Source: Candidatus Aenigmatarchaeota archaeon (GTDB taxonomy: Archaea; Aenigmatarchaeota; Aenigmatarchaeia; CG10238-14; SCSR01). Taken from it: a DNA stretch of 64,000 bases. The position numbers were made by a program, and so were the translations under genes. How positions within the stretch are numbered: the first letter of the stretch is position 1; the number at the start of each line of letters is the position of its first letter. The notes under the pieces were generated by a model. The model worked only from the letters and a program-made list of their open reading frames with translations. It searched no databases and had not been told where the DNA came from. Below are positions 5,101 to 63,757 of this stretch, piece after piece. Location of the stretch: contig JAWBTW010000005.1 of NCBI GenBank assembly GCA_039000165.1, forward strand, positions 981 through 64,980, in the 5' to 3' direction.

Positions 5101-5102
5101 GA

Positions 5103-6347
5103 ATGGAATTTTTAACTTTAGATGAGGCTAAAGTAGCCAACAAAACAGTTTTGTTAAGAGTAGACATTAACGTTCCTTATGACTTGGAGAAAAAACAAAT
5201 AGAAGATTCAGAAAGAATAAGGGAGCATGCAAAAACTATTAGAGAGCTTTCTGATAAAAAAGCAAAAGTAGTTATTCTTGCGCATCAAGGAAGAAAAGGG
5301 GACCCAGACTTTATTCATTTGAATCAACACGCAAAGCTTTTATCAAAGTATGTAGGAAAGGAAGTTCAGTTTGTCGACGATATAATAGGAGAAAAAGCAG
5401 TAAAAAGAATAAAATCTCTTAAGCCAGGAGAAGTTTTGCTTTTGGATAACGTTAGGTTTTTAGACGAAGAAACCGAAGAAAAGAGCCCAAAAGAACATGC
5501 AAAAAGCAATTTGGTAAAAAAGCTTTCTAGGCTTGCAGACATTTTTGTTAACGACGCTTTTTCTGCTTCTCATAGAAGCCACGCTTCCATAGTTGGTTTT
5601 ACAGAAGTTTTGCCAAGCTATGCAGGCAGAGTAATGGAAAAAGAGCTTAAATCAGAAGAAAGAGCTTTAGACCCTTTAGGAACAAACGTTTTTGTTCTTG
5701 GAGGAGCAAAACCTGATGATTGCTTGAATATAATAGATTACATGTTTAAAAACAAACCTGGCTCAATAGAAAAAGTTTTGACTTGTGGCACAGTAGGAGA
5801 AATATTCCTTGCAGCAAAAGGTTATGATTTAGGTAAGGAAACAAAAGAGTTTTTTGCAAAAAAAGGTTTTGATAAGCTCATAGAACAAGCGAAAGGTTTG
5901 CTCCAAAATTACGAGCTTGAAATAGAGTTGCCTGTAGATGTTGCTTTCGAAGAAAATGGAACAAGAAAAGAAATTCGAGTAGAAAATTTGCCTGTTGAAA
6001 AACTTTTGCAAGATATAGGTAGTGAAACAGCTAAGAAATACTCCGAGATAATAAAAAAGGCAAGAACTGTTGTGGTTAAAGGGCCTGCAGGAGTTTATGA
6101 GAAGCAAGGATTTGAGGTTGGCACAAAGCTTATCCTCGAAGCTATAGCAAACTCAAAAGCATTTTCTTTAATTGGTGGAGGAGATACCCTAGTTGCCATA
6201 GAAAAATTGGGAATAGATAAAAACAAATTCTCTTACATAAGCCTAGGTGGAGGAGCTCTAATAACTTCCCTTTCAGGAAAAGGAATGCCAGGGGTCGAAG
6301 CTTTAATTAAAGCAGCTAAAAAAGTTAAAAAGAAAAAGAGGAAGTAA
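5103..6347 (+). CDS. pgk: Phosphoglycerate kinase
   Basis: MEFLTLDEAKVANKTVLLRVDINVPYD... and ILAHQGRKGD are PGK N-domain motifs. ATG at 5103 sits right after the gap stop; an in-frame GTG at 5094 is an alternative start. Confidence 0.9.
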   Translation: MEFLTLDEAKVANKTVLLRVDINVPYDLEKKQIEDSERIREHAKTIRELSDKKAKVVILAHQGRKGDPDFIHLNQHAKLLSKYVGKEVQFVDDIIGEKAVKRIKSLKPGEVLLLDNVRFLDEETEEKSPKEHAKSNLVKKLSRLADIFVNDAFSASHRSHASIVGFTEVLPSYAGRVMEKELKSEERALDPLGTNVFVLGGAKPDDCLNIIDYMFKNKPGSIEKVLTCGTVGEIFLAAKGYDLGKETKEFFAKKGFDKLIEQAKGLLQNYELEIELPVDVAFEENGTRKEIRVENLPVEKLLQDIGSETAKKYSEIIKKARTVVVKGPAGVYEKQGFEVGTKLILEAIANSKAFSLIGGGDTLVAIEKLGIDKNKFSYISLGGGALITSLSGKGMPGVEALIKAAKKVKKKKRK

Positions 6348-6362
6348 TTTTTTTTAATTTTC
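6348..6362 (+). terminator. Putative archaeal oligo-T terminator after pgk
   Basis: TTTTTTTTAATTTT immediately after the pgk stop codon; archaeal terminators are typically T-tracts. Confidence 0.25.
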
Positions 6363-6388
6363 CAGCTATCATTTTAAGTAGTGATTGA

Positions 6389-6667
6389 ATGAAGAAAGTA
6401 AGAATTCATGTTTTTATTTCTGGCTTAGTTCAAGGTGTAAACTTTAGATACAACACAAAAAAATTTGCAGAAGGTTTGGGAATTACAGGTTGGGTAAGGA
6501 ACTTAAAAGACGGAAGAGTAGAAGTTGTGGCAGAAGGAAGTGAAGTAAGAATAAAGCATTTCTTAGATTTTCTTAAAAAAGGACCACCAGGCTCAAAAGT
6601 TGTAAACGTTGAAGTAATAGAAGAAGAATATAAAGGTGAATTTAAGTTTTTTGACATTCTTTACTAA
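6389..6667 (+). CDS. acyP: Acylphosphatase
   Basis: 92 aa. VQGVNFRYNTKKFAEGLGITGWVRNLKDGRVEVVAEG matches the acylphosphatase fold signature. Confidence 0.8.
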   Translation: MKKVRIHVFISGLVQGVNFRYNTKKFAEGLGITGWVRNLKDGRVEVVAEGSEVRIKHFLDFLKKGPPGSKVVNVEVIEEEYKGEFKFFDILY

Positions 6668-9054: not shown

Positions 9055-9948
9055 CTAGCCATTATTAATTTTTAGCCATTCCCTACCCACTTTCTTATAT
9101 AGAAATTTCCATTTACAAACAGCTTCTTTTTGAGACTTGGAACTTTCTTTAATGAAGATAGCATGGACAAGTTTCTCTTGCTTCCTTTTAGAGGTAAAAC
9201 CTATTTTTACAGCGAATTTTTTAGTGTTACAGAACTTATGAACAATCAGTCTATAAACATACTTTTTTCTCACTATCCTCTTCTTATCGAAAGTGCAACT
9301 ACTTCCTGGTTTTATACACATCGTTATTTTCGAGTCTATTTTAAATTTTTTAAGTAGTTGTTTCACGTACTTGAGAAGTTCCAAAGAAGTGCTCACAAGG
9401 CCTACCTTAACAACAAACCCTTTATTTGCTTCCACATGAGGACAACCTTCAGAATCGAATAAACCTTGTAAGAATTCTTTAGGATACTTTTCTATAACAT
9501 ACTTCAAATCTTTTAACTTTTTTCCAGCAAGAAAATTGTATAGCGATTTACAACCTACTTGGATTCTAAAATACTTTCCGTCTTCGTAAATCTTGTTAGG
9601 TTTTTTGTCAAGAATAAACGCCAAGCAATAAGAAAATTTTTCAACAAATTCTTTATCTTTTGCTCTTAACTCAATTTTATAGTGGTAATTCTTTTGTTTA
9701 TAAAGAGATGCGTCACCAAAACATACGCCAATTATATAACTTAATTCTTTACAAGGTTTTGGTTTAAAGAAACCATAACGTAAAGAAGGTCGATTTTTAA
9801 TAAGATGTTTTACGGTCTTAGGAGTAATTTTAAGAACCCTGCTTATCTTATTTATACTAAGTTTGTTTGCACGTAGCATTTGAACTTTTTCATAAATTCT
9901 TAATCTTTCTACGGGAGTCATGAGACGTAAACTTTTTAATTTCATCAA
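9055..9948 (-). CDS. Free-standing LAGLIDADG-type homing-endonuclease-like protein with N-terminal HTH
   Basis: 297 aa. N-terminal HTH-like SINKISRVLKITPKTVKHLIKN. Two dodecapeptide-like motifs, YIIGVCFGDASLY and FLQGLFDSEGCPHV, spaced about 100 aa apart as in double-motif LAGLIDADG enzymes. Confidence 0.55.
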   Translation of the reverse strand: MMKLKSLRLMTPVERLRIYEKVQMLRANKLSINKISRVLKITPKTVKHLIKNRPSLRYGFFKPKPCKELSYIIGVCFGDASLYKQKNYHYKIELRAKDKEFVEKFSYCLAFILDKKPNKIYEDGKYFRIQVGCKSLYNFLAGKKLKDLKYVIEKYPKEFLQGLFDSEGCPHVEANKGFVVKVGLVSTSLELLKYVKQLLKKFKIDSKITMCIKPGSSCTFDKKRIVRKKYVYRLIVHKFCNTKKFAVKIGFTSKRKQEKLVHAIFIKESSKSQKEAVCKWKFLYKKVGREWLKINNG

Positions 9949-29522: not shown

Positions 29523-29876
29523 TTAGGTCTGTTTTAGTCTTAACCCTTTTATAGTTCCAGAAACTCTTAAAATCTTTGGGACTATTCTTACATCCCCTAA
29601 ACGGGGAATTAAACTTAAGCAAACTATAGCTTTCGTGACAGATTTACTATTAGTTCTTAAAACTCCTAATTGTTCTTTTTCATTGTATAAATTCTTGATT
29701 AACCATAGGCCTGTTCTTGAAATCCCATGTTCACCAAAAAAATCCAAAGCAGATTCCCAAAGCGCGTTTTCTAGGTCTGAATAACTTATCGGTTCTTCAG
29801 AAATTATTTGAAAGGCTATGTATCTTTCTTTTTCTCTTAAAGTTGGAGGTAAAATTTTTAACTTTTTAACTTTCAT
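29523..29876 (-). CDS. rnp2: RNase P protein component 2 (Pop5/Rpp14)
   Basis: The ORF from 29906 overlaps Rpp30. The internal Met MKVKKLKILPPTLREKERYIAFQI gives the typical Pop5 N-terminus and a 4-nt overlap with Rpp30. Confidence 0.7.
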   Translation of the reverse strand: MKVKKLKILPPTLREKERYIAFQIISEEPISYSDLENALWESALDFFGEHGISRTGLWLIKNLYNEKEQLGVLRTNSKSVTKAIVCLSLIPRLGDVRIVPKILRVSGTIKGLRLKQT

Positions 29877-30589
29877 CTTACCACTTTCACACCAGGCATT
29901 ATCCAATTCTCACTTTTTCTTTCTTTAATTTTCTTTATAATTTCTTGAGGTATTCTTGAAACGGCTTCCTTAGCTTCCCTCATTTCTAACCCCAACTCAC
30001 ATCCGAAAGAAATTAAGGAATAAGGGTCACGCATCTCAAAATGATTTATTGCTCCGGAACAAATTATTAAAGGAGCCTTATACTTTTTAGCAAGTTTTAT
30101 GTTTTGTTGAACATTTCTCAAAATCAAACATCTTGTTCTTTTTGTCGTGAACAATATTTCCCTAAAATTTATTTCTATAGCAGTAGAGTTTTTTGCAGCA
30201 AGTTTTGCTAAGATATGATTCAAACCAGAATCTTGTCTCCCTAATTCAGGATGAGTTAAAATATCAACTTCTGGAGTTTCGCAAGCTTCCCTGTTCAATT
30301 CTAAATCCCCTCCCCTAACAAGTAAGATATCAAATTCTTTTCTTCTTTTAGCTAAACTTTTAAGTTCTCTTAAGTTTCTTGCTTCGAACCCGAGAAAAAT
30401 CTCTATTCCAACATCTTTCTTTATTCTTTCTATTTCACTTTTTAGAATTTCTTCTTCCTTTTTACTTAGAGGGTAGACAGTAAAGCAAAAGCCAGAATAG
30501 CCAAGTCTTTTTGCCATGCTGGCCAATTCTTCTAGGGTTGATTCTCCCCCACTAAATACAGAATGAACATGAAAGTCAAAAAATTTCAT
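29873..30589 (-). CDS. rnp3: RNase P protein component 3 (Rpp30, TIM-barrel PHP-like)
   Basis: 238 aa. MKFFDFHVHSVFSGGESTLEELASMAKRLGYSGFCF; conserved position upstream of pop5-psmA. Confidence 0.75.
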   Translation of the reverse strand: MKFFDFHVHSVFSGGESTLEELASMAKRLGYSGFCFTVYPLSKKEEEILKSEIERIKKDVGIEIFLGFEARNLRELKSLAKRRKEFDILLVRGGDLELNREACETPEVDILTHPELGRQDSGLNHILAKLAAKNSTAIEINFREILFTTKRTRCLILRNVQQNIKLAKKYKAPLIICSGAINHFEMRDPYSLISFGCELGLEMREAKEAVSRIPQEIIKKIKERKSENWIMPGVKVVR

Positions 30590-36380: not shown

Positions 36381-36695
36381 TTATCTATAAGGATATCTGT
36401 ATATTTTTTTACAGTTTAAGCATTTAACCTCTACAATTTTTTTCTTGCTTTTTATTCTTACTTGAGAAGAATAGCCAGGGATAAGCAAGAAGTTACAGTT
36501 TTTGCAAAACTTTCTTTTAAGTTCTTTTGGAAGCCTTATGTTATACCTTAGGCCAATTTTCCTTGCTAGCTCAATATAACGTTTACTTCTTTCAGGATGT
36601 TTTTTAAATTCCTTTTCTGCTAAATCAAAAAGAATTTGAATTCTTTCTCTTGCGATTTTTTGCTGCCATTTTGGTTTTCCTGCTCTTATTCTCAT
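36381..36695 (-). CDS. rnp4: RNase P protein component 4 (Rpp21/Rnp4, zinc ribbon)
   Basis: 104 aa basic protein. CKNCNF...CLNCK zinc ribbon and an N-terminal helical region. Confidence 0.75.
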   Translation of the reverse strand: MRIRAGKPKWQQKIARERIQILFDLAEKEFKKHPERSKRYIELARKIGLRYNIRLPKELKRKFCKNCNFLLIPGYSSQVRIKSKKKIVEVKCLNCKKIYRYPYR

Positions 36696-38262: not shown

Positions 38263-38355
38263 TGGGGACGCTGGGATTTGAACCCAGGTTTTCTCGTGCA
38301 AAGCACTCTGAGCCTCCCAAGGGCCCGATCCTAGACCAAGCTAGACGACGTCCCC
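38263..38355 (-). tRNA. tRNA-Pro(UGG)-like with an ~18-nt insertion (putative non-canonical intron)
   Basis: Minus-strand read: GGGGACG-TC-GTCTAGCTTGGTCTAGGAT-C-GGGCC-CUUGGGA-GGCUC-[AGAGTGCTTTGCACGAGAAAAC]-CTGGG-TTCAAAT-CCCAG-CGTCCCC-A. Acceptor and T arms are canonical. The anticodon stem GGGCC/GGCUC with loop CUUGGGA gives anticodon UGG. 22 nt lie between the anticodon stem and the T stem, where 4-5 are expected. Confidence 0.55.
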
Positions 38356-38445
38356 CTTATTATAATTTTAAATTCGAGATAAATGCTTTTTTTACTTTCT
38401 CTTTGTCGTAGGATAGTTTTATTTAAAGCTTGCTTCAACAAAATA

Positions 38446-38520
38446 TGGGAGGACCGGGATTTGAACCCGGGTTGCCGGCACCCCAAGCCGGATGCCTAGA
38501 CCAAGCTAGCAGATCCTCCC
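38446..38520 (-). tRNA. tRNA-Pro(GGG)
   Basis: Minus-strand read: GGGAGGA-TC-TGCTAGCTTGGTCTAGGCA-T-CCGGC-TTGGGGT-GCCGG-CAAC-CCGGG-TTCAAAT-CCCGG-TCCTCCC-A. Clean cloverleaf, anticodon GGG, 74 nt. Confidence 0.75.
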
Positions 38521-38561: not shown

Positions 38562-39833
38562 ATGGTTTATGAAACTATTGTCGGCAGACTAAAAGAAGAT
38601 AGAGAAAAATTTGGAAACAAGTGCTCAGGCTACTTGGGTAAGCATATTGTTGGAACTGGTGAAGACGCTCACCTAACAACAAAAGTTTTTATCGATTTGC
38701 TTCGATGTCATGTAATTCTAATTTCAGGAAAAAGGGGAACAGGTAAAAGCTATGATGCAGGAGTAATAGCAGAAGAAATTGCTTCACTTCCAGAAGAATT
38801 TAGAAAAAATTTAAGCGTAATTATGATAGATACTATGGGTATTTTTTGGAGCTTAAAAAAGCCAAACGAACAGCAAAAATCTTTACTTAAAGAATGGAAT
38901 CTAGAACCAAAAGGTTTTGAAAATGTGAAAGTTTTTGTTCCTTATTCTCAGCTTCAAGATTTTAAAAATGCAGGAATTCCCGTTGACGAAGGAATTTCAA
39001 TTTTGCCTTATGAGTTTTCAGCAGAAGAATGGAGGCTAGCTTTTAACTTAAAAAGAACAGAGCCTGCAGGAATTGCTCTAGAAAAAGTTATAAACCAACT
39101 TTTAGAATCTCAACAAAATTTTTCCATAGATGATATAATAACAAAAGTTAGAGACGATAAAGAAATTTCACAAGAAGTGAAAAGTGCTTTAGAAAACATG
39201 TTAACTGTAGCTAAGCAATGGGGAGTTTTTGGAGAAAAAGGAATTAATATAGATGATGTTGTTCAACCAGGCCAAATTTCTGTAGTTGATGTTTCTAGGT
39301 TAAGGGCAACAGAAGCCTGGAGCGTTAGAAACTTTATTGTTGCTATAATAGCAAGAAAGGTTTATGAGTATCGTTTGCTAGCAAGAAAAGAAGAAGAAAT
39401 AGCAAAGCTTGAGGGAAGAAAGCTTGAAAAAAGATATCCTATGGTTTGGCTTATTGTTGATGAAGCTCACAACTTTTGTCCTTCAGATTTTGAAACAGTT
39501 TCTTCTCAACCATTTCTAACAATAGCAAAGCAAGGAAGAGAGCCTGGAGTAAGCTTGGTAGTAATAACACAAATGCCAAATAAAATTCATCAGGATATTC
39601 TAAGCCAATGCGATTTGGTAATTTCTCATCGTTTAACTTCTCGTGATGATTTACAAGCTTTGCATGCTGTTTATCAAACTTATATGGCTGAAGAAATTGA
39701 GAAAATGATTAACAAGCTCCCAAGATGGCCTGGAGCTGCTTTAATTCTTGATGATAATTTGGAAAAAATTTTTACTGTTTGTATTAGGCCTAGACTTTCA
39801 TGGCATGCAGGAGGAACTGCTGCAGTTGTTTAA
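38562..39833 (+). CDS. DUF87 / HerA-like P-loop ATPase (short form)
   Basis: 423 aa. Walker A ISGKRGTGKSYD; Walker B/DEAH-like WLIVDEAHNF; C-terminal VVITQMPNKIHQDILSQCDLVISHRL typical of the HerA/VirB4-like DUF87 clade. Confidence 0.65.
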   Translation: MVYETIVGRLKEDREKFGNKCSGYLGKHIVGTGEDAHLTTKVFIDLLRCHVILISGKRGTGKSYDAGVIAEEIASLPEEFRKNLSVIMIDTMGIFWSLKKPNEQQKSLLKEWNLEPKGFENVKVFVPYSQLQDFKNAGIPVDEGISILPYEFSAEEWRLAFNLKRTEPAGIALEKVINQLLESQQNFSIDDIITKVRDDKEISQEVKSALENMLTVAKQWGVFGEKGINIDDVVQPGQISVVDVSRLRATEAWSVRNFIVAIIARKVYEYRLLARKEEEIAKLEGRKLEKRYPMVWLIVDEAHNFCPSDFETVSSQPFLTIAKQGREPGVSLVVITQMPNKIHQDILSQCDLVISHRLTSRDDLQALHAVYQTYMAEEIEKMINKLPRWPGAALILDDNLEKIFTVCIRPRLSWHAGGTAAVV

Positions 39834-51302: not shown

Positions 51303-52271
51303 TTAAATCTCTAAGATGCAATCTTCCAAATTCTTATCGTTCCTTAATCTTACAAAGGAAGGAGCTCTTAGTTGTAAATCTTTTGTTATCTCCATAAACT
51401 TTACTTCACATATTAGCTTGGGCTTAACCCAGTTTACTATTAAATCAGAAGGAAGTTTTGGTTTTTCTTCTAAAGGGCATTCGTCTATTCTTAATTTTTT
51501 CAACTCTTCTGTAAGCTCAGCATATCCTTTTTCATCTAGGCCTGTTCCACATCTTCCTACATACTTTAATTTTCCTTGATGGAAACAAGCTAAGACCAAA
51601 GCTCCGAAGTATTTTTCACGCCAACCTTCACCTTTTGTATATCCTACAATAATACAATCTAAAGTTTTTAAGAACTTTATTTTCAACCAATTTTTACTTC
51701 TTTTTCCTATTTCATACTTTGAATCTAGGCGTTTTGCCATTATCCCTTCCAAACCCTTTTCCTTGGCTTTCTCAAAAAGATCTTTTCCTCTGCCAATTAT
51801 ATAGCTTGAAAGCATTATTCTTTGATTTTCTTTAACAATACTCTCCAGAATCCTTTTTCTTTCAATCAAAGGCTTATCAACTAAATCTTTTCCGTCTAAA
51901 TGTAAAATATCAAAAACAACGTAAGTAGCTGGCATGATTTCAGATAAAAGCTTAATTCTTAGTTTTTCTCCAACATGCTCTCTTGTCTGCAAAGCAAAAA
52001 AATCTGGCTTACCTTTTTTAAAGACAACTATTTCCCCGTCTAGCACAACTCTTTTTGCGTTTATGTTTTCATAAATTTTAAGAAGTTCAGGATAGTTTGA
52101 CTGGAAGAACTTAAGCCTTCTGTTGAGAAACCTCACTTCCTTTTTTTCTTTATCTATATAAGCTATAGTTCTTGTACCATCTAGCTTAATCTCAAAACAG
52201 AATTCGTCAGAATCAAAAGGTTCTGATATATAAGCAAGCATTGGTTTTATTATTTGGTCGAAAAGTGTCAT
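51303..52271 (-). CDS. ATP-dependent DNA ligase, minimal LigD-type ligase domain (adenylation + OB)
   Basis: 322 aa. Motif I EIKLDGTR (KxDGxR), motif III FDILHLDG, motif IV DGEIVV, motif V EGIMAKR, motif VI WLKIK. Confidence 0.8.
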   Translation of the reverse strand: MTLFDQIIKPMLAYISEPFDSDEFCFEIKLDGTRTIAYIDKEKKEVRFLNRRLKFFQSNYPELLKIYENINAKRVVLDGEIVVFKKGKPDFFALQTREHVGEKLRIKLLSEIMPATYVVFDILHLDGKDLVDKPLIERKRILESIVKENQRIMLSSYIIGRGKDLFEKAKEKGLEGIMAKRLDSKYEIGKRSKNWLKIKFLKTLDCIIVGYTKGEGWREKYFGALVLACFHQGKLKYVGRCGTGLDEKGYAELTEELKKLRIDECPLEEKPKLPSDLIVNWVKPKLICEVKFMEITKDLQLRAPSFVRLRNDKNLEDCILEI

Positions 52272-52358
52272 AATTAGATTTTATAAAAGAAATAATTTCT
52301 TTTCTTCTTTTTAAATCTCAAAACTCTGGAAAATTGGATTGGGTAAATTATCCAAAGT

Positions 52359-53165
52359 TCATCTACTATTCACTTCTTTCTTTTCCTCTTTCTTCTTTTT
52401 CACAGTTTCTATACTAGCTTTTAAAGCTTCTACAAGCTCCTTGGTTTCAGGAATTTTTTCCTCCTTAACTTCAATTTCCTTTCCTTCTGCTCTTGCTTTT
52501 ATCAGTTTCATAAGTTCTTCTGTGTAATTATCCTTAAACTTCGAAGCATCAAATTCTGATTCAGTTAACTTTGAAATTAAGGCTTGGGCTAGCTTAAGTT
52601 CCTCTTCTCTTACAGTTACTAAATTCTTAAGCTCGCTTATCTCTTCTATGTCCTTTATTTCTCCCAAGTAATGTAGAATGTGCATTACCAAACCCTTTTT
52701 AAAAGCTCTTATCGCAACCAAATATTCTTTATTTCTTATGACGACCTTCCCTATTGCAACTTTGTTCGTAATTCTTAGGGCTTCGACAAAAAGAGAGTAA
52801 GCTTTTATTCCTGTTTCTTCAGGGGCAATGTAATAGCTTTTTTCCAAGAATATCGGGTCTATTTGAGAAGCATCTACAAATTCTTGAATTTCTATAGCTT
52901 TAGTTGTTTTAAGCCTGAGCTTTTCCAGGTCTTCCTTTTTAATTATTACATACTGATCCTTAGCTATTTTGTATCCTTTTTCGATATCCTCATATGCAAC
53001 TTCTTTCTCGCATTTTGGACACCATCTCTTATAAACTAAAGGAGTTCCGCATTCTTTATGTAAATTATTAAAAGAAATTACTCTACTTTCTGTTGCCTTA
53101 TAAATCTTTATCGGAATGTTTACCAAGCCAAAAGATATGCTTCCTGAAAATATTGCTCTTGTCAT
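52359..53165 (-). CDS. ku: Ku protein (bacterial/archaeal single-domain Ku)
   Basis: 268 aa. MTRAIFSGSISFGLVNIPIKIYKATE is the hallmark Ku N-terminus; acidic/lysine-rich C-tail. Confidence 0.85.
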   Translation of the reverse strand: MTRAIFSGSISFGLVNIPIKIYKATESRVISFNNLHKECGTPLVYKRWCPKCEKEVAYEDIEKGYKIAKDQYVIIKKEDLEKLRLKTTKAIEIQEFVDASQIDPIFLEKSYYIAPEETGIKAYSLFVEALRITNKVAIGKVVIRNKEYLVAIRAFKKGLVMHILHYLGEIKDIEEISELKNLVTVREEELKLAQALISKLTESEFDASKFKDNYTEELMKLIKARAEGKEIEVKEEKIPETKELVEALKASIETVKKKKEEKKEVNSR

Positions 53166-56051: not shown

Positions 56052-56783
56052 TCACTTATAAACTACATTTAGTATTTTTACGGTTAAAAAATCAGCTCCT
56101 GAGTACAAAGTATAAAGAATTTGGTAACTTGCATAAGTTGTATTCAAGTATACTATAGCTTCAGCTTTCCCAGAGTTTTTCCCAGGGTCTAAAGCTTGAG
56201 AATAGCCATAACCATAAGAGCTTTCTTCTCTATCGTCTATAAAAATAGAAGTATCTGAAGGAATTAAGCTCGCATCACTCGGCTTAAAATAAATGAGTTT
56301 AATGAGTTTGCTTGTGTTTATTAACTCTGGAGCTTCTTTGCTACCTTTTTTTTCAATCGCTACTCTTAAGAATTCGTTTTCTAAAATGATTTCTTGGTTT
56401 CCGTCGTTATCCAGGTCATATTCCCTAACTATAGCGTTTTTCCCTGGAATAAAAATTATATTTTCATTTTTTAGAAAAACTGGCTCAAGTCGATAGTTCT
56501 TAGGCGAATAATAAAAATCGATGCAGTTAGTTTTTTCGTTTATTTTATATTCTCCGTCAGTAACCTTAATGGAAAGAGTCCTAAGACTACCCAAACCTTC
56601 TGTTGCAACTTCTTCTATACTTTGTGACATTAGCCTTAAGTTTTCCCAAGCTTCGTTAATCACTAAAGATTCTCTTGCTTTCTCTATGGTAGGCATCCCT
56701 ATCAAAAGAACTAAAGTTATTCCAGAAACTACTATCATAATAACCATTACATAAGCTACCAATGGGCTTATACCTTTTAACAT
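56052..56783 (-). CDS. Archaeal type IV pilin-like protein (class III signal peptide)
   Basis: 243 aa. N-terminus MLKG|ISPLVAYVMVIMIVVSGITLVL, the KG-ISPLVA class III signal peptide / archaellin-like N-terminal domain. Confidence 0.6.
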   Translation of the reverse strand: MLKGISPLVAYVMVIMIVVSGITLVLLIGMPTIEKARESLVINEAWENLRLMSQSIEEVATEGLGSLRTLSIKVTDGEYKINEKTNCIDFYYSPKNYRLEPVFLKNENIIFIPGKNAIVREYDLDNDGNQEIILENEFLRVAIEKKGSKEAPELINTSKLIKLIYFKPSDASLIPSDTSIFIDDREESSYGYGYSQALDPGKNSGKAEAIVYLNTTYASYQILYTLYSGADFLTVKILNVVYK

Positions 56784-57403
56784 CTTCTTACCTCCACTAT
56801 CGGCTTGTTTTCTGGAGTTATGTCAGAATATTCCACGCAGATTTTACTTGTCCCTGGACCTAAAATTTCATCCCCCCTTATAACAACTTTATCATTTCTT
56901 AAAACCATTGTAATGAAGTTTAACTGCGTCGGATAAACAGAGAATGGTTGGGAAGGTAAGCCGTACCTTTCTACAGAATAAATCTTTTTCTCGATTTGAT
57001 TGCAGGTTCCATTAGTAAAAGCTATAATGAAGGTTGTCCCTTCAACTTTTTGTTTGATTTCAATTTTGTAACTTTCTGAGCCATCTATTAAAAAAGAAAC
57101 ATAACCTAAGTCTTGTTTTTTTCCCGAATAGATTACACTTGCCAGAATTCCTTTTTCAAATTCTTCCTCATCATAAGTGCAAACATAAAAGTGAGTCAAA
57201 TTGGTAGGATAACCTATCAAGTAATAGCTTTCGCTGGCGTTGCCAGTTGCTTCTCCAATTCTATAAAAGTCGTTGCTTTTATTTTCCCCCAAGTGATACG
57301 CGAACCTAAACTTTACATAGCTTATTTTACTTTGAGCTTTGAGAGAGGTTAAGAGAAAACAAAATACTAGGATCAAGGAGGCAAGGAAAATTACTTTTTT
57401 CAT
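56777..57403 (-). CDS. Hypothetical secreted protein (classical signal peptide)
   Basis: 208 aa; MKKVIFLASLILVFCFLLTSLKAQS. Confidence 0.4.
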   Translation of the reverse strand: MKKVIFLASLILVFCFLLTSLKAQSKISYVKFRFAYHLGENKSNDFYRIGEATGNASESYYLIGYPTNLTHFYVCTYDEEEFEKGILASVIYSGKKQDLGYVSFLIDGSESYKIEIKQKVEGTTFIIAFTNGTCNQIEKKIYSVERYGLPSQPFSVYPTQLNFITMVLRNDKVVIRGDEILGPGTSKICVEYSDITPENKPIVEVRRC

Positions 57404-57427
57404 AATTAATCTTTTGATTTTTAATAA

Positions 57428-58021
57428 TTAAACCAGTTTATAGGTTTTTAGAATCTTGTCTCTAAGCTTAAGTTTTTGGTTTTCAAGTCTTAAATCAATA
57501 AATAATAAAAGTTTGTTTTCTTCAGTTTCAACTTTCAGCAGGATTTCTTCGCTTTCTTTAGAGTAAGGTGTTTCATAGAAAATTTTTAGTGTATAGTTTG
57601 CGTTTTGCTCAGGAATTGTGAAGTTAGCACTTAATTCTTTTCCGTCTTCTATATTTTTAAATTCAACGAGCGAATCATTAACACTTAAGTTAAGGAAAAG
57701 AATTTCACTTCCTAAAAGATTTTTTATACTCAAGTTAAGCTTGCTATTCTCTAGTTTTGCTGTTAAAAGGAATGATTTGAATTCCAAACTTCTTCTCTTG
57801 AAAGAGTTTCTTGAAAATGTGGCAAAAGCTTCTAGGTTTTTGGTTAGATTTTCTTTTTCATGAATCGAAAATTCAATACTTCTTATCATTTCTTCCTTAA
57901 CATTTTCAAATTCAAGAAAAAGGCTCTCATCTTTAAATTGAAAGAAGCTTATGCTTGCTTTTATCAACGCAAGGATTATTATAAAAATTATTGCAACTAT
58001 CAAGAAAGTTTGGCCTTTCAC
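57428..58021 (-). CDS. Hypothetical protein with class III (prepilin-like) signal peptide: candidate minor pilin
   Basis: 197 aa; MKG|QTFLIVAIIFIIILALI. Confidence 0.4.
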   Translation of the reverse strand: MKGQTFLIVAIIFIIILALIKASISFFQFKDESLFLEFENVKEEMIRSIEFSIHEKENLTKNLEAFATFSRNSFKRRSLEFKSFLLTAKLENSKLNLSIKNLLGSEILFLNLSVNDSLVEFKNIEDGKELSANFTIPEQNANYTLKIFYETPYSKESEEILLKVETEENKLLLFIDLRLENQKLKLRDKILKTYKLV

Positions 58022-58380
58022 TTTCTTACCACCAAAACAATTTCTAAAGGTTGAAATCTCCCAATATCTCCTGCTAAAAGATAATTTATCCTTGATTTCT
58101 CTTCTTCAAAACTAGCTATTTTGCAAGTCTCAGAACATATAAAAACTTCATAATTCAGTTGATAAGGAAGCAACTTTACAAGCTTGTTTTTTATGCTTTC
58201 GGTATCATTTTCTAAGGCATACTTTCTTAGCTCGTTGCTTTCGTCTAAAGCTTTTAGTGCTTTTAGGCAAATTTCCTTAATGTTAATTTCTGTTTTTTGT
58301 TCTTGCGGAACAAATGCTAAAATTAAAAAAATGACTATTAAAAAAGTTGCGATTGCTGCTTCTGCAATGTATAAAGCCAT
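58018..58380 (-). CDS. Hypothetical N-terminally anchored small protein
   Basis: 120 aa; MALYIAEAAIATFLIVIFLILAF. 4-nt overlap with the downstream gene. Confidence 0.35.
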   Translation of the reverse strand: MALYIAEAAIATFLIVIFLILAFVPQEQKTEINIKEICLKALKALDESNELRKYALENDTESIKNKLVKLLPYQLNYEVFICSETCKIASFEEEKSRINYLLAGDIGRFQPLEIVLVVRK

Positions 58381-59015
58381 TATTTTTCACTTACCTCTAA
58401 GTAAAAATTATAATTAAGATTTTTAATCAAATCCTCGTAGCTAATGTTTCTAAGCTGTTTTAACTTACCTAAAGATAGCATTTCCAATTCCTGTAAAGGG
58501 AAGATTTCTATTTTAAACCCTGAATTTTCCTCGAAAGCGACATTATGGCTTACTTCCTTCACATCTTTTTCTCCTGAAAAATAGACAAAGAAATTTTTTG
58601 GCTGGAAAGCTGAGAAGTTGGACTTTAAACATAAATCAGCCCTTTTTAAGTAGCCTTCTTCGCAGAAAGTTTTATTATATAAGCTAAACTCAACTTCTTG
58701 ATTTTCCTCATAAACCCTTACTGTCGAGAACCAGGCTCTTTTTTCACATGTTTCGTCAAAAATTATAGTTAAATTTACAACAGCATTAACCCTTTCATTT
58801 CCGCTGATCTCTACAATTTTAACGGGTAGCTTGTAAAGTTTTGTGGTTAGGTTTAATTTTAAAGGAATAAACAAATTTCTTGCAACTATTTTTAGGTTAG
58901 TATTTTGATTGTATTGGAGATGTCTTACTAAGTAATTTAAAACAAAACTTAAGGCTATACCTATAACTATTATAATAATCCCAACAGCTATTACAAAATC
59001 AGCTTGGATTGGCAT
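58380..59015 (-). CDS. Hypothetical N-terminally anchored protein
   Basis: 211 aa; MPIQADFVIAVGIIIIVIGIALSF. Confidence 0.35.
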   Translation of the reverse strand: MPIQADFVIAVGIIIIVIGIALSFVLNYLVRHLQYNQNTNLKIVARNLFIPLKLNLTTKLYKLPVKIVEISGNERVNAVVNLTIIFDETCEKRAWFSTVRVYEENQEVEFSLYNKTFCEEGYLKRADLCLKSNFSAFQPKNFFVYFSGEKDVKEVSHNVAFEENSGFKIEIFPLQELEMLSLGKLKQLRNISYEDLIKNLNYNFYLEVSEK

Positions 59016-59018
59016 TAA

Positions 59019-59501
59019 CTAATCCCTTCCTCCAAAAACAATTTTATCTTTGATTTCGTTATTTAAGTTGCATCTAGAGTAGCGCATAATCATTTCCTTT
59101 TCACTTTCAAGTTTTCCTTCGATTTCAACCTCAACCTTAGGAAACTTCTTAGCAAAAATTTCTGAATCAACCCTCGACTCTATTTCTAAATTTTCTTCCG
59201 AATTTTTAATTAAAAGCTCATAATTTTTTCCTGAAATTTTAGAGGGAAGGTTCAAACTAACTTCCTGAAGCAGAACGCAAGAATTATTTTTTGGCGATAA
59301 TTCTGATTTTTTAGCGAAATCGTAAGCTGTTACTATGTAATTATACATTCTTAAAGAAACGCTTTCGAGCTCGTTTTTTGCTTGATTTTTTAACCAGTTT
59401 GAGTAAAAAGAGAAGAAAACTAGAGAAGAAAAAACAATAAGTATTACTGATAATAAAGTAGCCAGAGCATAACTTATCAGGATGGCTTGTCCTTTCATCA
59501 A
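59019..59501 (-). CDS. Hypothetical protein with class III (prepilin-like) signal peptide: candidate minor pilin
   Basis: 160 aa; MMKG|QAILISYALATLLSVILIVF. Confidence 0.4.
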   Translation of the reverse strand: MMKGQAILISYALATLLSVILIVFSSLVFFSFYSNWLKNQAKNELESVSLRMYNYIVTAYDFAKKSELSPKNNSCVLLQEVSLNLPSKISGKNYELLIKNSEENLEIESRVDSEIFAKKFPKVEVEIEGKLESEKEMIMRYSRCNLNNEIKDKIVFGGRD

Positions 59502-59558
59502 TTAAAATTGGCATGCGTAAGATAATATTTATTAACTCTCAAAAATAAAAATAAAAGT

Positions 59559-59990
59559 ATGAGAAAAGGAATATCTCCACTTGTGGCCGCAGTTCTTTTG
59601 ATAGCAGCTACTATGGGAATAGCAACAATCCTAACATACTGGGCATCCACTTTTATCAAATCTTCCTTGCCAGAAGTTGCCAATCAAAGCTATAGTCCTT
59701 GCCTATACGCAGATTTTCAGATTTATTCTTGCTCTTACACAAATTCAACTCCAACAAAAGGAAACATAACTTTAATTCTTAAGAATGTTATGGACGTTGA
59801 GCTAAGGAATCTGACAGCTACTGTATTTTATCCAACTGGCACAATAAAAAACTACAATCTTAAACCAGATAATGTTTTACCGAAAAATATTTACAAAGGC
59901 TTTACAATAGAAGATGTTGATTTGCCTTACACTAAGGTTGTCATAACTACTCATTGTCCGTATGTAGAAGAAGAGTCTCCATGCCAGTAA
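59559..59990 (+). CDS. Archaeal type IV pilin (class III signal peptide)
   Basis: 143 aa; MRKG|ISPLVAAVLLIAATMGIATILTYW. Confidence 0.6.
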   Translation: MRKGISPLVAAVLLIAATMGIATILTYWASTFIKSSLPEVANQSYSPCLYADFQIYSCSYTNSTPTKGNITLILKNVMDVELRNLTATVFYPTGTIKNYNLKPDNVLPKNIYKGFTIEDVDLPYTKVVITTHCPYVEEESPCQ

Positions 59991-60463
59991 AAGGCATTTC
60001 CCCCCTAGTGGCTACAGTACTGTTAATAGCTTTTACAGTAGCTTCAGCCGCGATAATTTCTTTTTGGTTGTTACCTTTTTTGTCATCGTTTTCCAAAACA
60101 ACTAGCGAAGAAGCTGAGATTCAGCTTAAGTGTAGCAGAGGAGGGGTTTATCTTTTTGATTTAAATTATAACTTATCTTCTTCCTCTCTTTCCGGAAAAA
60201 TTGAAAATACTGGCTCTGTCTCCCTTGGAAATTTTGCTTTGCAAATAGTTTACCTTAACTATACGACAGAAAAAATAGAGCTATGCTTTTCTGGAGGAAC
60301 AGTAGTAGCTTGTGAAAACTCTAACCTAACGCTCCTCCCTAGGAACATAATATCTTTTAGCGTTCTGCTTCCAAACAACTACGACATAATAACTCTAACT
60401 ACAAACTGTTCAGTTTATGGAGTTTACGATAGAGTTACAAGGGAAGAGATTAACCAAATATAA
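59981..60463 (+). CDS. Archaeal type IV pilin (class III signal peptide)
   Basis: ATG 59981 gives MPVKG|ISPLVATVLLIAFTVASAAI. The ORF-track start at 59954 adds 9 non-pilin residues. Overlaps the upstream pilin gene by 10 nt. Confidence 0.6.
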   Translation: MPVKGISPLVATVLLIAFTVASAAIISFWLLPFLSSFSKTTSEEAEIQLKCSRGGVYLFDLNYNLSSSSLSGKIENTGSVSLGNFALQIVYLNYTTEKIELCFSGGTVVACENSNLTLLPRNIISFSVLLPNNYDIITLTTNCSVYGVYDRVTREEINQI

Positions 60464-61265
60464 GAAAAACTATTACACCAACACTTATCATAAAAAGACT
60501 ATGCTTTATTCCTGCTACTATAGCTCCTTCCGACATTTTTCCGACTATTAATCCGGCAAAAAAACCTTGGATTATTATGAGATTTTGGAAGAGAAACTTG
60601 TACCTTTCTGTAAGGTTTGTTTGATGAGCTTCCTCAAGAGGGGTTTTAGCTTGCGAAAGACTAGGTATCAAGAACCTTTGCATTATTATCATTACCGCCA
60701 AAAAAACAAAGAAAATTACATAACCTGTAATCATTTGAGATTGAAGGTAGAGCCTCCTTTCTGTTCTTAATCTTTCTATTTCTATGGCAGTATTTGCCAA
60801 AGCTTCTAAGGTATCTGTTAAGTTTCCACCAAAGCGGTGAGTTTCTATTACACTTGAAATAATCCTTGCTATAACTCTTGATTTGCTCTCCTTAGCAAAA
60901 TTTTGAAGAATCTTATCAACGTTAATTCCCCAATCAACTTGTGCTGCCATTTTTTTAACGTAAGGAGTTAGGCTTTTGTAATCGTTAGAAGAAAGAGCTT
61001 TCAAAGCTTGTGGCAATGTCATCCCACTTCTTACGCTTTCTACAAAATCCCTTAGAAAAACTGGAAAAATTTCCTCCAATTCTTTCACTTTTTTGTATTC
61101 CTTATACCTTGAAAAAATTAACGGCGAAACAAAAACTCCAAAAGCGACTATTAAAATTATTTGAAAAATGTTTGAGGTTAAAGAAAAGTAAAGGGAAGAG
61201 AAAGTGAGTAAGAATGCAGCTAAAAGGCCGGTTGGAATAAACACTATAATTTCATTCTTCTTCAC
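60450..61265 (-). CDS. TadC/FlaJ-like pilus assembly membrane protein (T2SSF-like domain), second half-gene
   Basis: The ORF-track start at 61508 overlaps the upstream gene by 247 nt in another frame. A GTG at 61263-61265 (inside ATGTGA, after a GGAGG RBS) gives MKKNEIIVFIPTGLLAAFLLTF... with a 4-nt overlap. Polytopic membrane protein. Confidence 0.5.
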   Translation of the reverse strand: MKKNEIIVFIPTGLLAAFLLTFSSLYFSLTSNIFQIILIVAFGVFVSPLIFSRYKEYKKVKELEEIFPVFLRDFVESVRSGMTLPQALKALSSNDYKSLTPYVKKMAAQVDWGINVDKILQNFAKESKSRVIARIISSVIETHRFGGNLTDTLEALANTAIEIERLRTERRLYLQSQMITGYVIFFVFLAVMIIMQRFLIPSLSQAKTPLEEAHQTNLTERYKFLFQNLIIIQGFFAGLIVGKMSEGAIVAGIKHSLFMISVGVIVFLIFG

Positions 61266-62140
61266 ATTTCTACCTCCACACTTCTCAGGAACATTAGAAA
61301 AGCTATGTTCAATACTGGAAGAATTACATAAATAGTTAGCTCCATCAGGTTGAGAATTTCTATCCCTCCTATTGTTGTTGCTCCTGGTATTGTATTCATT
61401 ACAGCAAAAAGAGAAATTATGAAAAGAGGAGCAGCTATTAGTAAGCCAGTATAAATTTCCGCATAAGTTGTTAGTTGTTGTAAAAATCTTTCTCTTCTTA
61501 TTCTCCATTCAAACAAAGCCCTTATTCCAGAAGTTTTCAAGTATTCTTTCATACTTCCTCCTGCTTCTGTTGTTGTCACAAAGCCTAACAAGAGTTGCCT
61601 TAGGCTTTCCGAAGGAGTCCTTTTGGCAACTTCTCTCGCTGCAGTAACAGGGTCTGCACCAAAAACTTCTATATTCCTAACAATTTTTTTCATTTCTTCA
61701 GCCACTTCTCCGTATTCTTTGAAATTGCTTATAATCTTGAAAACAACATACGGAGGAACTCCGGATTCGGCTATCGCGCTCATATGAGTTAAAACAAAAG
61801 GTAAGTTAGTTTCTATGTTTCTTTTTTTCGATTGCATTATCTGATAAGGGGAAAAGAATAGTGTAAAAAGGCAGATAAACGAAAAGACTATCGGCATAAG
61901 AATGACATAAATCGGAAACAGGATTTCTGGTAGTTTTGAAAAAATGAACACAAAATAAGAAGAAAAGAGACTTATAAAAAAAACTATTATTGTGGTTAGA
62001 ATGCTCATACTAACATAACTTCTTAAAGGAATTTTAATCCCTGATTTAACTAAACTTTCCCTCAAAAAAGAAAAAAGTTTAGGATTTTTGTCTACAATTT
62101 TCCCGAACAATAAAGTTGCGAAGCCGATATATCCCATCAA
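61262..62140 (-). CDS. TadB/FlaJ-like pilus assembly membrane protein (T2SSF-like domain), first half-gene
   Basis: 292 aa polytopic membrane protein immediately downstream of the secretion ATPase. Hydrophobic helices flank a cytoplasmic segment, as in T2SSF domains. Confidence 0.5.
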   Translation of the reverse strand: MMGYIGFATLLFGKIVDKNPKLFSFLRESLVKSGIKIPLRSYVSMSILTTIIVFFISLFSSYFVFIFSKLPEILFPIYVILMPIVFSFICLFTLFFSPYQIMQSKKRNIETNLPFVLTHMSAIAESGVPPYVVFKIISNFKEYGEVAEEMKKIVRNIEVFGADPVTAAREVAKRTPSESLRQLLLGFVTTTEAGGSMKEYLKTSGIRALFEWRIRRERFLQQLTTYAEIYTGLLIAAPLFIISLFAVMNTIPGATTIGGIEILNLMELTIYVILPVLNIAFLMFLRSVEVEM

Positions 62141-62146
62141 CTTTCC

Positions 62147-63757
62147 CTATTTTTTCTTTTTCAACATTTTTGCCTGCTTATAGTAAAACTTAATGTATTT
62201 TGTAACTTCGATATAATCTTTAATTCCTTTTTCTCTTAAGCTTTCAAGAAATTTTTCCCTTCTTTTTATTTCTTTCAAGGCTTCTTCAACCTTACCTCCT
62301 AGTTCTTCAGCTATTTCCTTTATCTTCACACTTTCGTAAAATTTTTCATAAGTATCTTTTGTAGGGTTCCACCTAAAAACAGGGTTTGCTTTTACTTCTC
62401 CTGTTTTCGGGTCAACTGACTGAATTTCAACAACTTCTTTAACCCTTCTAGCAGATTCTCCTTTTTCTTTTGCGTGCGTCATTATAACTATAACATCTAA
62501 ACTTTCTAAAAGCGTAGGCGGGAGCTCTATCGGTGGAGAAGTTAACCTTTTAATAACAGTGTCAACACTTCCTGCATGAAAAGTGCTCATGCAAGGATGG
62601 CCTGAGCTCATTCCCTGAAACATAACATAAGCTTCTTTTCCTCTTGTTTCTCCAACTATAACATAATCAGGATTTTGTCTAAAGCTTTCTTTTAGCAAGT
62701 CAAAAAGAGTGACTTCACCGTATTTTTCTCCACTAGGCAAAGGAATTCCAAAACCTACTCTTGCCAAAGTGGGAATCCAATGTTCGTGAGGAATTCTTAT
62801 TTCTCTTGTATCTTCTATCGAAACGATTTTTGCTTCTGAAGGAATAAACATGCATAAGCTATTGAGAAAGGAAGTTTTACCAGTTGCTACTCCACCAACT
62901 ATCAAAATGGAAGCTTTATGTTCTATCAAATACCAAAAATATGCTAGCATTTCAGCGCTTGCTGTATTAAGTTCAATTTGCTCTATTGGCGAAATAGGTT
63001 TTGTGGTAAATTTTCTTATAGTAAAAGTTGGTCCTCTTGTTGCTACATCTCCTGCAAGCGTGGCAGAAACTCTTGAACCGTCTGGTAAAGTACCTGAAAG
63101 AATAGGTTCGGCATAACTTATGTATCTTCCGCATTTTTCAGCTAATTTTACGACAAAACCTCTCAACTTTTCTTCTTCCGTATAAACTATGTTAGTTTTC
63201 ATAGACCCAAACTTTCTATGAATTATATAGATTGGGATATTAACGCCATCGCAACTTATATCTTCTATGTTTGGATCTTGAAGTAGGGGTTCTATCTCGT
63301 TCAAGCCTATAAAGTTTCTATAAATATGGTACATGAGTTTGATGTAACTTATTCTTGAAAGCTTAAGCCCAAACTCTTTTATTATTTTTAAAACATTTTT
63401 TTGCAAGTATTCCATAGCTTTTGAAATATCTTTGATGGCAGTAAGCTCAACTTCAATAAGTTCTACCAAGGCTTCAGAAATTTTTTCCAGAATTTCTTTT
63501 TCATTTTCTGTAAGTTCTGGTTCTATTACATTATAAATTAGTTCTTGATTCTGTTTATCCCATTTTATGTGAGCAAAAGCAAAAGGTTCTATTAAAGGAT
63601 AAATAACATTAACTCTTGTTAGGTCATGATAAGTAGGGATTTCCACTATTCTTTCCTGTTTTTTCAAAGCAAAGGCTGGAAAGAATTTTCTTTCTTTTTT
63701 TATTAGTTTTCTATAAAGGATTCCTTTTAAACTCTTCACTTTTTCCAACATAATCAT
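62147..63757 (-). CDS. Type II/IV secretion system ATPase (archaeal FlaI/TadA/PilB-like)
   Basis: 536 aa. Walker A GGVATGKTSFLNSL, Asp box/Walker B DVIVIMTH region, His box FHAGS. Confidence 0.85.
   Translation of the reverse strand: MIMLEKVKSLKGILYRKLIKKERKFFPAFALKKQERIVEIPTYHDLTRVNVIYPLIEPFAFAHIKWDKQNQELIYNVIEPELTENEKEILEKISEALVELIEVELTAIKDISKAMEYLQKNVLKIIKEFGLKLSRISYIKLMYHIYRNFIGLNEIEPLLQDPNIEDISCDGVNIPIYIIHRKFGSMKTNIVYTEEEKLRGFVVKLAEKCGRYISYAEPILSGTLPDGSRVSATLAGDVATRGPTFTIRKFTTKPISPIEQIELNTASAEMLAYFWYLIEHKASILIVGGVATGKTSFLNSLCMFIPSEAKIVSIEDTREIRIPHEHWIPTLARVGFGIPLPSGEKYGEVTLFDLLKESFRQNPDYVIVGETRGKEAYVMFQGMSSGHPCMSTFHAGSVDTVIKRLTSPPIELPPTLLESLDVIVIMTHAKEKGESARRVKEVVEIQSVDPKTGEVKANPVFRWNPTKDTYEKFYESVKIKEIAEELGGKVEEALKEIKRREKFLESLREKGIKDYIEVTKYIKFYYKQAKMLKKKK

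Follow-up and report, generated by a model that had tools for sequence, protein, structure and literature searches.

Does a tRNA-Pro(UGG) gene with 22 nt between its anticodon and T stems encode a functional tRNA interrupted by an intron, a tRNA with a long variable arm, or no working tRNA at all? The gene in question lies in a 64,000-nt stretch of an archaeal contig (hereafter the window), and the original prediction read its surplus of about 18 nt as a non-canonical bulge-helix-bulge (BHB) intron in the variable region; the other option it named was a degenerate duplicated tRNA. Our analysis makes it highly probable that a functional tRNA-Pro(UGG) is interrupted here by an 18-nt protein-spliced intron of the BHB type, located in the variable loop at positions 45/46. 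The observations behind this reading are the gene itself, the boundaries of the insert, a splice motif together with its covariation, and the presence or absence of the insert among orthologues.

A tRNA-Pro(UGG) gene with a long variable region

ARAGORN calls a tRNA-Pro(tgg) of 93 nt on the minus strand at 38263-38355 (Table 1), and the Rfam model RF00005 spans the whole gene (44.3 bits, model positions 1-71 of 71; gathering score 29), so that both agree with the identity and the extent originally predicted. The Rfam alignment places a 19-nt insertion state in the variable region, in the interval between the anticodon stem and the T stem. In the tRNA sense, which is also the sense of the sequences quoted in the prediction, the gene reads GGGGACG UC GUCU AGCUUGGUCUA GGAU C GGGCC CUUGGGA GGCUC from the acceptor to the anticodon arm, followed by AGAGUGCUUUGCACGAGAAAAC CUGGG UUCAAAU CCCAG CGUCCCC A. 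The acceptor stem (GGGGACG/CGUCCCC), anticodon arm (GGGCC-CUUGGGA-GGCUC) and T arm (CUGGG-UUCAAAU-CCCAG) that had been recognized are thus all present, the D arm is indeed like that of the neighbouring tRNA-Pro(GGG) at 38446-38520, and the spacing between anticodon stem and T stem is 22 nt (AGAGUGCUUUGCACGAGAAAAC), as claimed. The unconstrained minimum-free-energy fold of the 93-mer is a rod rather than a cloverleaf (-38.6 kcal/mol, z = -2.1); it is uninformative, because the spliced 75-mer, that is, the intronless tRNA of L203 (see below), folds likewise.

Table 1. Features of the tRNA-Pro locus (window coordinates)
Feature	Position	Strand	Details
pre-tRNA-Pro(UGG) gene	38263..38355	-	93 nt, CCA not encoded; ARAGORN, Rfam RF00005
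Exon 1 (pre-tRNA nt 1-48)	38308..38355	-	acceptor 5' strand, D arm, anticodon arm, A44 G45; identical to L203
Predicted intron AGUGCUUUGCACGAGAAA, 18 nt (pre-tRNA nt 49-66)	38290..38307	-	tRNA positions 45/46; absent from L203, L199, L205, L194
Exon 2 (pre-tRNA nt 67-93)	38263..38289	-	A46 C48, T arm, acceptor 3' strand, discriminator A73; identical to L203
Anticodon UGG (pre-tRNA nt 37-39)	38317..38319	-	ARAGORN position 37; Rfam alignment
BHB central helix, 5' strand G40 C41 U42 C43	38310..38313	-	same as anticodon stem 3' strand; partners 38292-38295
BHB central helix, 3' strand, intron GAGA	38292..38295	-	GAGC, GAGU or CAGC in relatives
5' splice-site bulge A G ^ A (3 nt)	38307..38309	-	between central and inner helix; AGA/AAA family-wide
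Inner helix h', GUGC-UUU-GCAC hairpin	38296..38306	-	within intron
3' splice-site bulge A A ^ A	38289..38291	-	between central helix and C48; AAA, UAA, AUA in relatives
Candidate promoter element GCATTTATC, TATA-like	38378..38386	-	about -31 to -23 from mature 5' end
Tandem partner tRNA-Pro(GGG)	38446..38520	-	75 nt, without intron, loop CAAC; ARAGORN; Rfam 50.2 bits

Taken at face value, the ARAGORN result, an uninterrupted 93-nt tRNA, would mean that the insert is retained and that the tRNA works with a long, class II-like variable arm built on the GUGC-UUU-GCAC hairpin. A cloverleaf carrying the insert hairpin is also the most stable structure when the acceptor, D and T arms are imposed on the fold (-32.4 to -32.9 kcal/mol), and the insert is perfectly conserved in four genomes. 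However, long variable arms are restricted to Leu, Ser and bacterial Tyr tRNAs, with rare exceptions such as nematode nev-tRNAs (PMC4033280). Here the isotype is Pro, and the orthologues share no conserved self-paired variable stem.

Insert boundaries defined by intronless orthologues

A metagenome scan for tRNA-Pro(UGG) genes having the anticodon loop and the T loop of the window gene recovered orthologues free of the insert. In one of them, L203, the exons are 100% identical to those of the window gene and the variable loop has 4 nt, AGAC. Without 38290-38307, the window gene is 75 nt long and matches the syntenic L203 gene in every position, the AGAC loop included; since the two genes differ only by those nucleotides, the insert is exactly 18 nt long, and the approximate length given in the prediction turns out to be precise. 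L203 has the same tandem of tRNA-Pro(GGG) and tRNA-Pro(UGG) beside the same neighbour, a HerA-like ATPase with 86% protein identity to that of the window, and therefore represents an orthologue rather than a second copy. The AGAC loop without the insert is also found in L199, L205 and L194. The assignment to position 45/46 (between G45 and A46) assumes that a 4-nt loop is numbered 44, 45, 46 and 48, and a register shifted by one base in the 3' direction yields an identical product and is thus equally compatible with the sequence.

These orthologues speak against a retained variable arm, as the insert is wholly missing from all four, including the one with identical exons. They also bear on the possibility that the gene is a decaying duplicate which has acquired an insertion, while a canonical tRNA-Pro(UGG) elsewhere does the work. 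The lower Rfam score of the window gene (44.3 bits versus 53.0 for the intronless L203) would fit such decay, but the stems are all intact and the exons are exactly those of the intronless orthologue.

Two other kinds of element were considered and rejected. The 18-mer AGUGCUUUGCACGAGAAA occurs once in the window, and a search for a mobile mini-element found no further copies in the window or at non-orthologous loci, apart from one match with 3 mismatches inside ORF 777-2339, which is probably due to chance. Group I and group II introns possess a catalytic RNA core and extend over hundreds of nucleotides; a self-splicing intron of either group can be dismissed for an insert of 18 nt that matches no Rfam intron family.

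A relaxed BHB motif borrowing the anticodon stem

To look for a splice motif, we considered all registers of a 4-bp helix flanked by two 3-nt bulges, one on each strand, and placed the cut after the second base of each bulge, a rule taken over from canonical introns, whose central helix includes anticodon bases 34-35 (PMC4090602). The BHB motif that the prediction expected across the insert does exist: one solution reproduces the AGAC junction. It combines three standard central pairs (C43-G, U42-A and C41-G) and a G40.A mismatch with opposite 3-nt bulges at the splice sites, and removal of the insert defined in this way restores a canonical mature tRNA. The outer helix consists of the single pair G39-C48. 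When the 18 bases of the intron were shuffled in the fixed register, 0.25% of the sequences reproduced the motif under a strict requirement (at least 3/4 central and 4/4 inner pairs), and 2.2% of the same composition-preserving shuffles did so under liberal criteria.

A strict hBHBh' motif, the substrate of alpha4 / alpha'2 EndA, has a perfect 3-4-3 geometry with h and h' helices of at least 2 bp each; the window motif does not belong to it because of the G.A mismatch and the 1-bp outer helix. The proposal of a non-canonical BHB intron in the variable region stands, on the strength of the L203 junction, the motif and the covariation over eight intron versions (see below), with the qualification that the motif is of the relaxed kind. 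The central helix cannot coexist with the anticodon stem, as the 3' strand of the latter is used in both, and according to ViennaRNA at 37 C the BHB conformer lies 6.5 kcal/mol above the cloverleaf (-25.9 versus -32.4 kcal/mol). A relaxed motif that in addition competes with the anticodon stem calls for a splicing endonuclease of broad specificity. In our structural model, the G39-C48 pair stacks on the T stem, which could in our opinion serve as a surrogate outer helix.

Two competing structural readings of the insert did not hold. A 7-nt intron, for which GUGC/GCAC would be the central helix and the UUU loop would hold the second cut, was rejected because it would leave a 15-nt variable region and disagree with the intronless orthologues. 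A K-turn or K-loop formed by the GA...GA flanks of the hairpin, considered by eye, lacks the 3-nt bulge before the second GA and is not kept in relatives.

A family of predicted introns in related genomes

Intron versions were collected by a scan of 185,579 species-representative genomes and by the metagenome scan. The first pattern, applied to viral contigs (CTTGGGA N{16,46} GGGTTCRAATCCC), gave 71 matches, many of them the D-arm CTTGGGA of other tRNAs, and the tightened pattern used in the genome scan gave 118, many of which were actinobacterial tRNA D-arms. Including that of the window, eight distinct versions occupy the 45/46 site (Table 2), and for all eight the predicted spliced loop is AGAC or AAAC. 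The exons are near-invariant in most intron-bearing relatives, L204 being more divergent.

Table 2. Intron versions at the 45/46 site, divided according to the predicted motif
Locus	5' bulge	Inner region	Central 3' strand	3' bulge	Position 48	Intron length (nt)
Window, L115, L129, L209	AGA	GUGC UUU GCAC	GAGA	AAA	C	18
L132	AGA	GUGU AUUU ACAC	GAAG	AAA	C	19
L200	AGA	AAGC UUA GCUU	GAGU	UAA	C	18
L085, L216	AGA	GUUUAAAC	GAGC	AAA	C	15
L204	AGA	UC GCAA GA	CAGC	AUA	C	15
L093	AGA	GUAAAG	GAGC	AAA	C	13
L092	AAA	AAAA	GAGC	AAA	C	11
L180	AAA	AUUU	GAGC	AAA	C	11

The family displays the compensatory change among homologues that is expected of a BHB intron. In L204, the 3' strand of the anticodon stem is GGCUG instead of GGCUC and the intron segment is CAGC, a compensatory double change (GCUC/GAGC to GCUG/CAGC), and the inner helix is swapped for GUGU/ACAC in L132, AAGC/GCUU in L200 and UC-GCAA-GA in L204. 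On a MAFFT alignment of the family, 93.4% of the cells are paired overall and 90.6% in the central helix; both partners have changed in four pairs, the inner helix accounting for three (3/4 of its pairs). Neither the observed pairing nor the covariation score was matched in any of 500 shuffles, and sliding the partners by 1-3 columns left only 16-50% paired. The full 4-bp central helix is found in 6/8 versions, whereas L132 retains only two of the four central pairs. In the shortest relatives, a loop of 7-9 nt (7 nt in the 11-nt versions) replaces the 5' bulge and the inner helix, resulting in a motif of the BHL type.

The same family makes a retained variable arm very improbable, since an intronic stem is impossible in the 11-13-nt versions (L092, L180 and L093) and since a variable arm has no reason for keeping a complementarity to the anticodon stem that is both conserved and covarying. 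It likewise disposes of the idea that faulty assembly or sequencing produced the insert, or that it was inserted by chance and has no biological meaning. Although the window stems from metagenome-assembled genomes, the identical 93 nt recur in no fewer than five assemblies or samples that are independent of each other (L001, L002, L115, L129 and L209), and variant inserts are present at the same site in L132, L200, L085, L216, L204, L093, L092 and L180, with L085 and L216 having the same sequence. In view of this recurrence in independent assemblies, we consider an artefact effectively refuted.

The paralogous tRNA-Pro(GGG) lends independent support to the intron reading. In L132 and L200 its variable loop contains inserts of 13 and 12 nt, respectively, whose 3' parts complement their own anticodon stems (GCCG/CGGC in L132; GCUG/AAGC, 3/4 pairs, in L200), and both are predicted to splice to CAAC, the loop of the intronless tRNA-Pro(GGG) of the window.

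A number of further inserts were observed in these genes. The variable-loop inserts of tRNA-Pro(GGG) belong to the genes L132:1319-1408 and L200:1992-2076, while inserts of ~10-13 nt are located beside the anticodon loop of tRNA-Pro(GGG) in L203:1920-2005 and L194:1086-1170. Judging from these differing inserts, both the presence and the position of introns are polymorphic in the two tandem tRNA-Pro genes. The tRNA-Pro(UGG) genes of L204, L092 and L093 have a second insert of ~11-17 nt in the D-loop/D-stem region, which in L092 and L093 contains CCAA, complementary to the D-loop UUGG. In L194, the tRNA-Pro(UGG) gene (minus strand, ~885-915) is without the 45/46 intron and has an apparent ~29-nt insert in the 5' acceptor strand near 7/8, GGGGACG[CUUGACUGCGGGGAUACAUACCGCAAACG]UCGUC or an equivalent register; ARAGORN mis-calls the 5' end of this gene.

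Conservation and surroundings of the locus

The two tRNA-Pro genes, which share the minus strand, are the only tRNAs that ARAGORN finds in the 64-kb window. Rfam's tRNA model covers each of them from end to end, and a permissive scan of the window with Rfam detected no further (disrupted) tRNAs. The tandem order of tRNA-Pro(GGG), tRNA-Pro(UGG) and ATPase is conserved in all relatives, so the gene is an orthologue rather than an extra copy. Including the intron, the 93-nt gene is 100% identical in the window, L115, L129 and L209. Among the same four, identity is 82-90% over the 300 nt upstream, where the invariant neighbouring tRNA is located, and falls to 12-30% over the 300 nt downstream, which barely align. 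The element GCATTTATC is kept in all four amid a diverged inter-tRNA spacer; its position fits an archaeal TATA box, and it might therefore act as a promoter element. All this is at odds with a pseudogene, for which a degraded cloverleaf, relaxed constraint and no conserved position would be expected. Instead, the gene holds its place in a conserved tandem in all relatives, has accumulated no substitutions over 93 nt between genomes with diverged flanks, and is preceded by a conserved TATA-like element, and no further tRNA appears within the 64-kb window at a permissive threshold. A decaying duplicate thus seems hardly credible, and the degenerate-copy alternative of the original prediction does not survive the conservation of the exons and of the Pro/Pro/ATPase order.

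The relationships among the relatives are not fully congruent. L129 and L209 share both tRNA-Pro genes and the 18-nt intron with the window, yet their ATPase is only 78% identical; the ATPase of L132 is 92% identical to that of the window, yet its 19-nt intron and its intron-bearing tRNA-Pro(GGG) are both diverged. This incongruence between ATPase and tRNAs might possibly reflect recombination or gene conversion at the tRNA locus.

The host is archaeal: the window (32-35% G+C) encodes informational proteins of archaeal type, namely S19e, L37Ae, prefoldin beta, SepF, exosome subunits and proteasome alpha. The identical tRNA and the same proteins are found in assemblies GCA_039000015.1 and GCA_044343425.1, and the nearest named genomes carrying this tRNA, L115 and L132, are hot-spring MAGs labelled "Candidatus Aenigmatarchaeota archaeon", Aenigmatarchaeota being a DPANN phylum. 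The RNase P proteins Rpp14, Rpp30 and Rpr2 are encoded at 29523-30589 and 36381-36695 (minus strand), 2-9 kb from the tRNA-Pro genes. A class II aminoacyl-tRNA synthetase 4 kb away was considered as ProRS and rejected, as it is GlyRS. In L115, the HerA-like ATPase (4285-6660, plus strand) contains an in-frame 369-aa LAGLIDADG intein inside Walker A (GKRG|C...HN|TGKS); its orthologue in the window, 38562-39833, is without the intein. A free-standing 297-aa ORF with a LAGLIDADG_3 domain (Pfam 1e-17) is located at 9055-9948 (minus strand), amid glycolysis/glycogen genes. These belong to a dense gluconeogenesis/glycolysis and glycogen cluster at 2340-23200, notable for a small-genome DPANN lineage, which comprises sugar genes (GAPDH, PGK, TIM, a protein with an FBPase_3 domain (PF01950), GPI and PGM) and glycogen genes (two GH57, one GH15, a debranching-enzyme-like protein and three glycogen-synthase-like glycosyltransferases). 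At 51303-53165 (minus strand), Ku (268 aa, PF02735) adjoins an ATP-dependent DNA ligase (322 aa), and in the related assembly L220 a LigD primase-polymerase gene is found ~11 kb from Ku, past a pilus-like cluster. Judging by its gene content, Ku/ligase/LigD resembles an end-joining set of the bacterial type, here in a DPANN archaeon. The region 56052-63757 (minus strand) of the window resembles a type IV pilus/archaellum cluster, with a PilB-type ATPase, two T2SSF membrane proteins and eight small ORFs without a Pfam match.

Discussion

Non-canonical BHB introns have been documented in Thermoproteales, Thaumarchaeota, Korarchaeum and ARMAN/DPANN (PMC4090602, PMC4033280, PMC3239211, PMC5829648, PMC8450103), and the window intron has the testable defining features of the relaxed BHB class; it is a known sort of element and not a new one. 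The taxa that the original prediction had named (Thermoproteales, Korarchaeota and some DPANN) do include documented carriers, although the host here is a hot-spring DPANN archaeon of the Aenigmatarchaeota and not a member of Thermoproteales. The closest parallels are the relaxed hBH/HBh' (BHL) introns of Thermoproteales and other Thermoproteota (Marck & Grosjean 2003; Sugahara et al. 2008; both as cited in PMC4090602 and PMC4033280). Like them, the introns of the present family are short, (as predicted here) protein-spliced and located away from 37/38, have a 4-bp exon-intron helix with 3-nt bulges and a splice motif for which the cloverleaf must refold locally, vary in presence between orthologues, and in some genes occur several times. 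They differ in the DPANN host, in a length of 11-19 nt and in the near absence of the outer helix. In ARMAN-2 (Ca. Micrarchaeum), a 13-nt hBH intron at 59/60 of tRNA-Cys is cleaved in vitro by epsilon2 EndA, an enzyme of broad specificity (PMC3239211, PMC3488258). The window intron shares with the ARMAN-2 introns the DPANN host, the very short length, the relaxed BHB/BHL motif and the non-canonical position, but it resides in the variable loop rather than in the T loop and in another phylum. With the canonical 37/38 hBHBh' intron it has in common the 3-4-3 geometry and the cut after the second bulge base, both assumed here, and presumably the enzymes EndA and RtcB. Unlike that intron, it is positioned at 45/46, takes its central helix from anticodon-stem positions 40-43 instead of anticodon-loop bases, and has one mismatch and a 1-bp outer helix where a strict substrate has neither. 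A class II variable arm differs more fundamentally, since the insert is dispensable, has no family-wide stem, is complementary to the anticodon stem and occurs in tRNA-Pro.

Splicing of this precursor might proceed as follows. The intron 3' segment GAGA would pair with GCUC at tRNA positions 40-43 to form the central helix, flanked on one side by the bulge AG^A and the 4-bp intron hairpin and on the other by AA^A and then C48. EndA, the archaeal splicing endonuclease, would next cut behind the second base of each bulge, and an RtcB-type ligase would join the exons into a 75-nt tRNA with the variable loop AGAC, its maturation being finished by RNase P trimming and CCA addition. EndA cleavage, ligation and expression of the locus are inferred. 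Neither EndA nor RtcB was found among the Pfam-annotated genes of the 64-kb window and of the intron-family loci, and a tblastn search with an approximate M. jannaschii EndA query had a Pyrobaculum locus as its sole match. Substrates of this sort, relaxed hBH/HBh' motifs outside the canonical position, require and are cut by (alpha-beta)2 or epsilon2 EndA, or else by loop-bearing enzymes known from DPANN (PMC3239211, PMC5829648). An alpha4 EndA with an 'L3' loop is known from several other DPANN lineages, from a study whose set did not include Aenigmatarchaeota (PMC5829648). A bolder and rather unlikely idea is that this clade may splice its 11-19-nt variable-loop introns through a minimal motif with an EndA recognition mode or architecture undescribed for DPANN. 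The motif would be reduced to a 4-bp exon-intron helix stolen from the anticodon stem and a 3-nt bulge, with hardly any outer helix; where the second bulge should be, the 11-nt versions would have no more than a 7-nt loop. If true, the stacked T stem might be used as the surrogate outer helix, and the intron could double as a folding or modification checkpoint for tRNA-Pro.

The expectation that such introns are easily missed by annotators is borne out, as ARAGORN reports the window gene as uninterrupted and detects no tRNA in L204, L092 and L093. The intron models of tRNAscan-SE were trained on Crenarchaeota/Euryarchaeota and Thaumarchaeota (PMC8450103). Given the errors of ARAGORN on this gene family, tRNA inventories of DPANN MAGs will contain gaps or errors as long as non-canonical introns are left out of the models.

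DPANN lineages often have disrupted tRNA genes (PMC3239211, PMC5829648), and none of PMC4090602, PMC4033280, PMC3239211, PMC5829648 and PMC8450103 describes tRNA introns in Aenigmatarchaeota; the link between disrupted tRNAs and DPANN (PMC5829648) now reaches this phylum. Added interest comes from the ultrashort orthologue series, from the competition between the BHB motif and the anticodon stem, and from the failures of a standard tRNA finder on this gene family. Spanning no intron through 11, 13, 15, 18 and 19 nt at one site, as well as other sites in the same gene, the orthologues constitute a compact natural experiment on how BHB introns are gained, lost and shortened and on what the splicing endonuclease minimally requires of its substrate.
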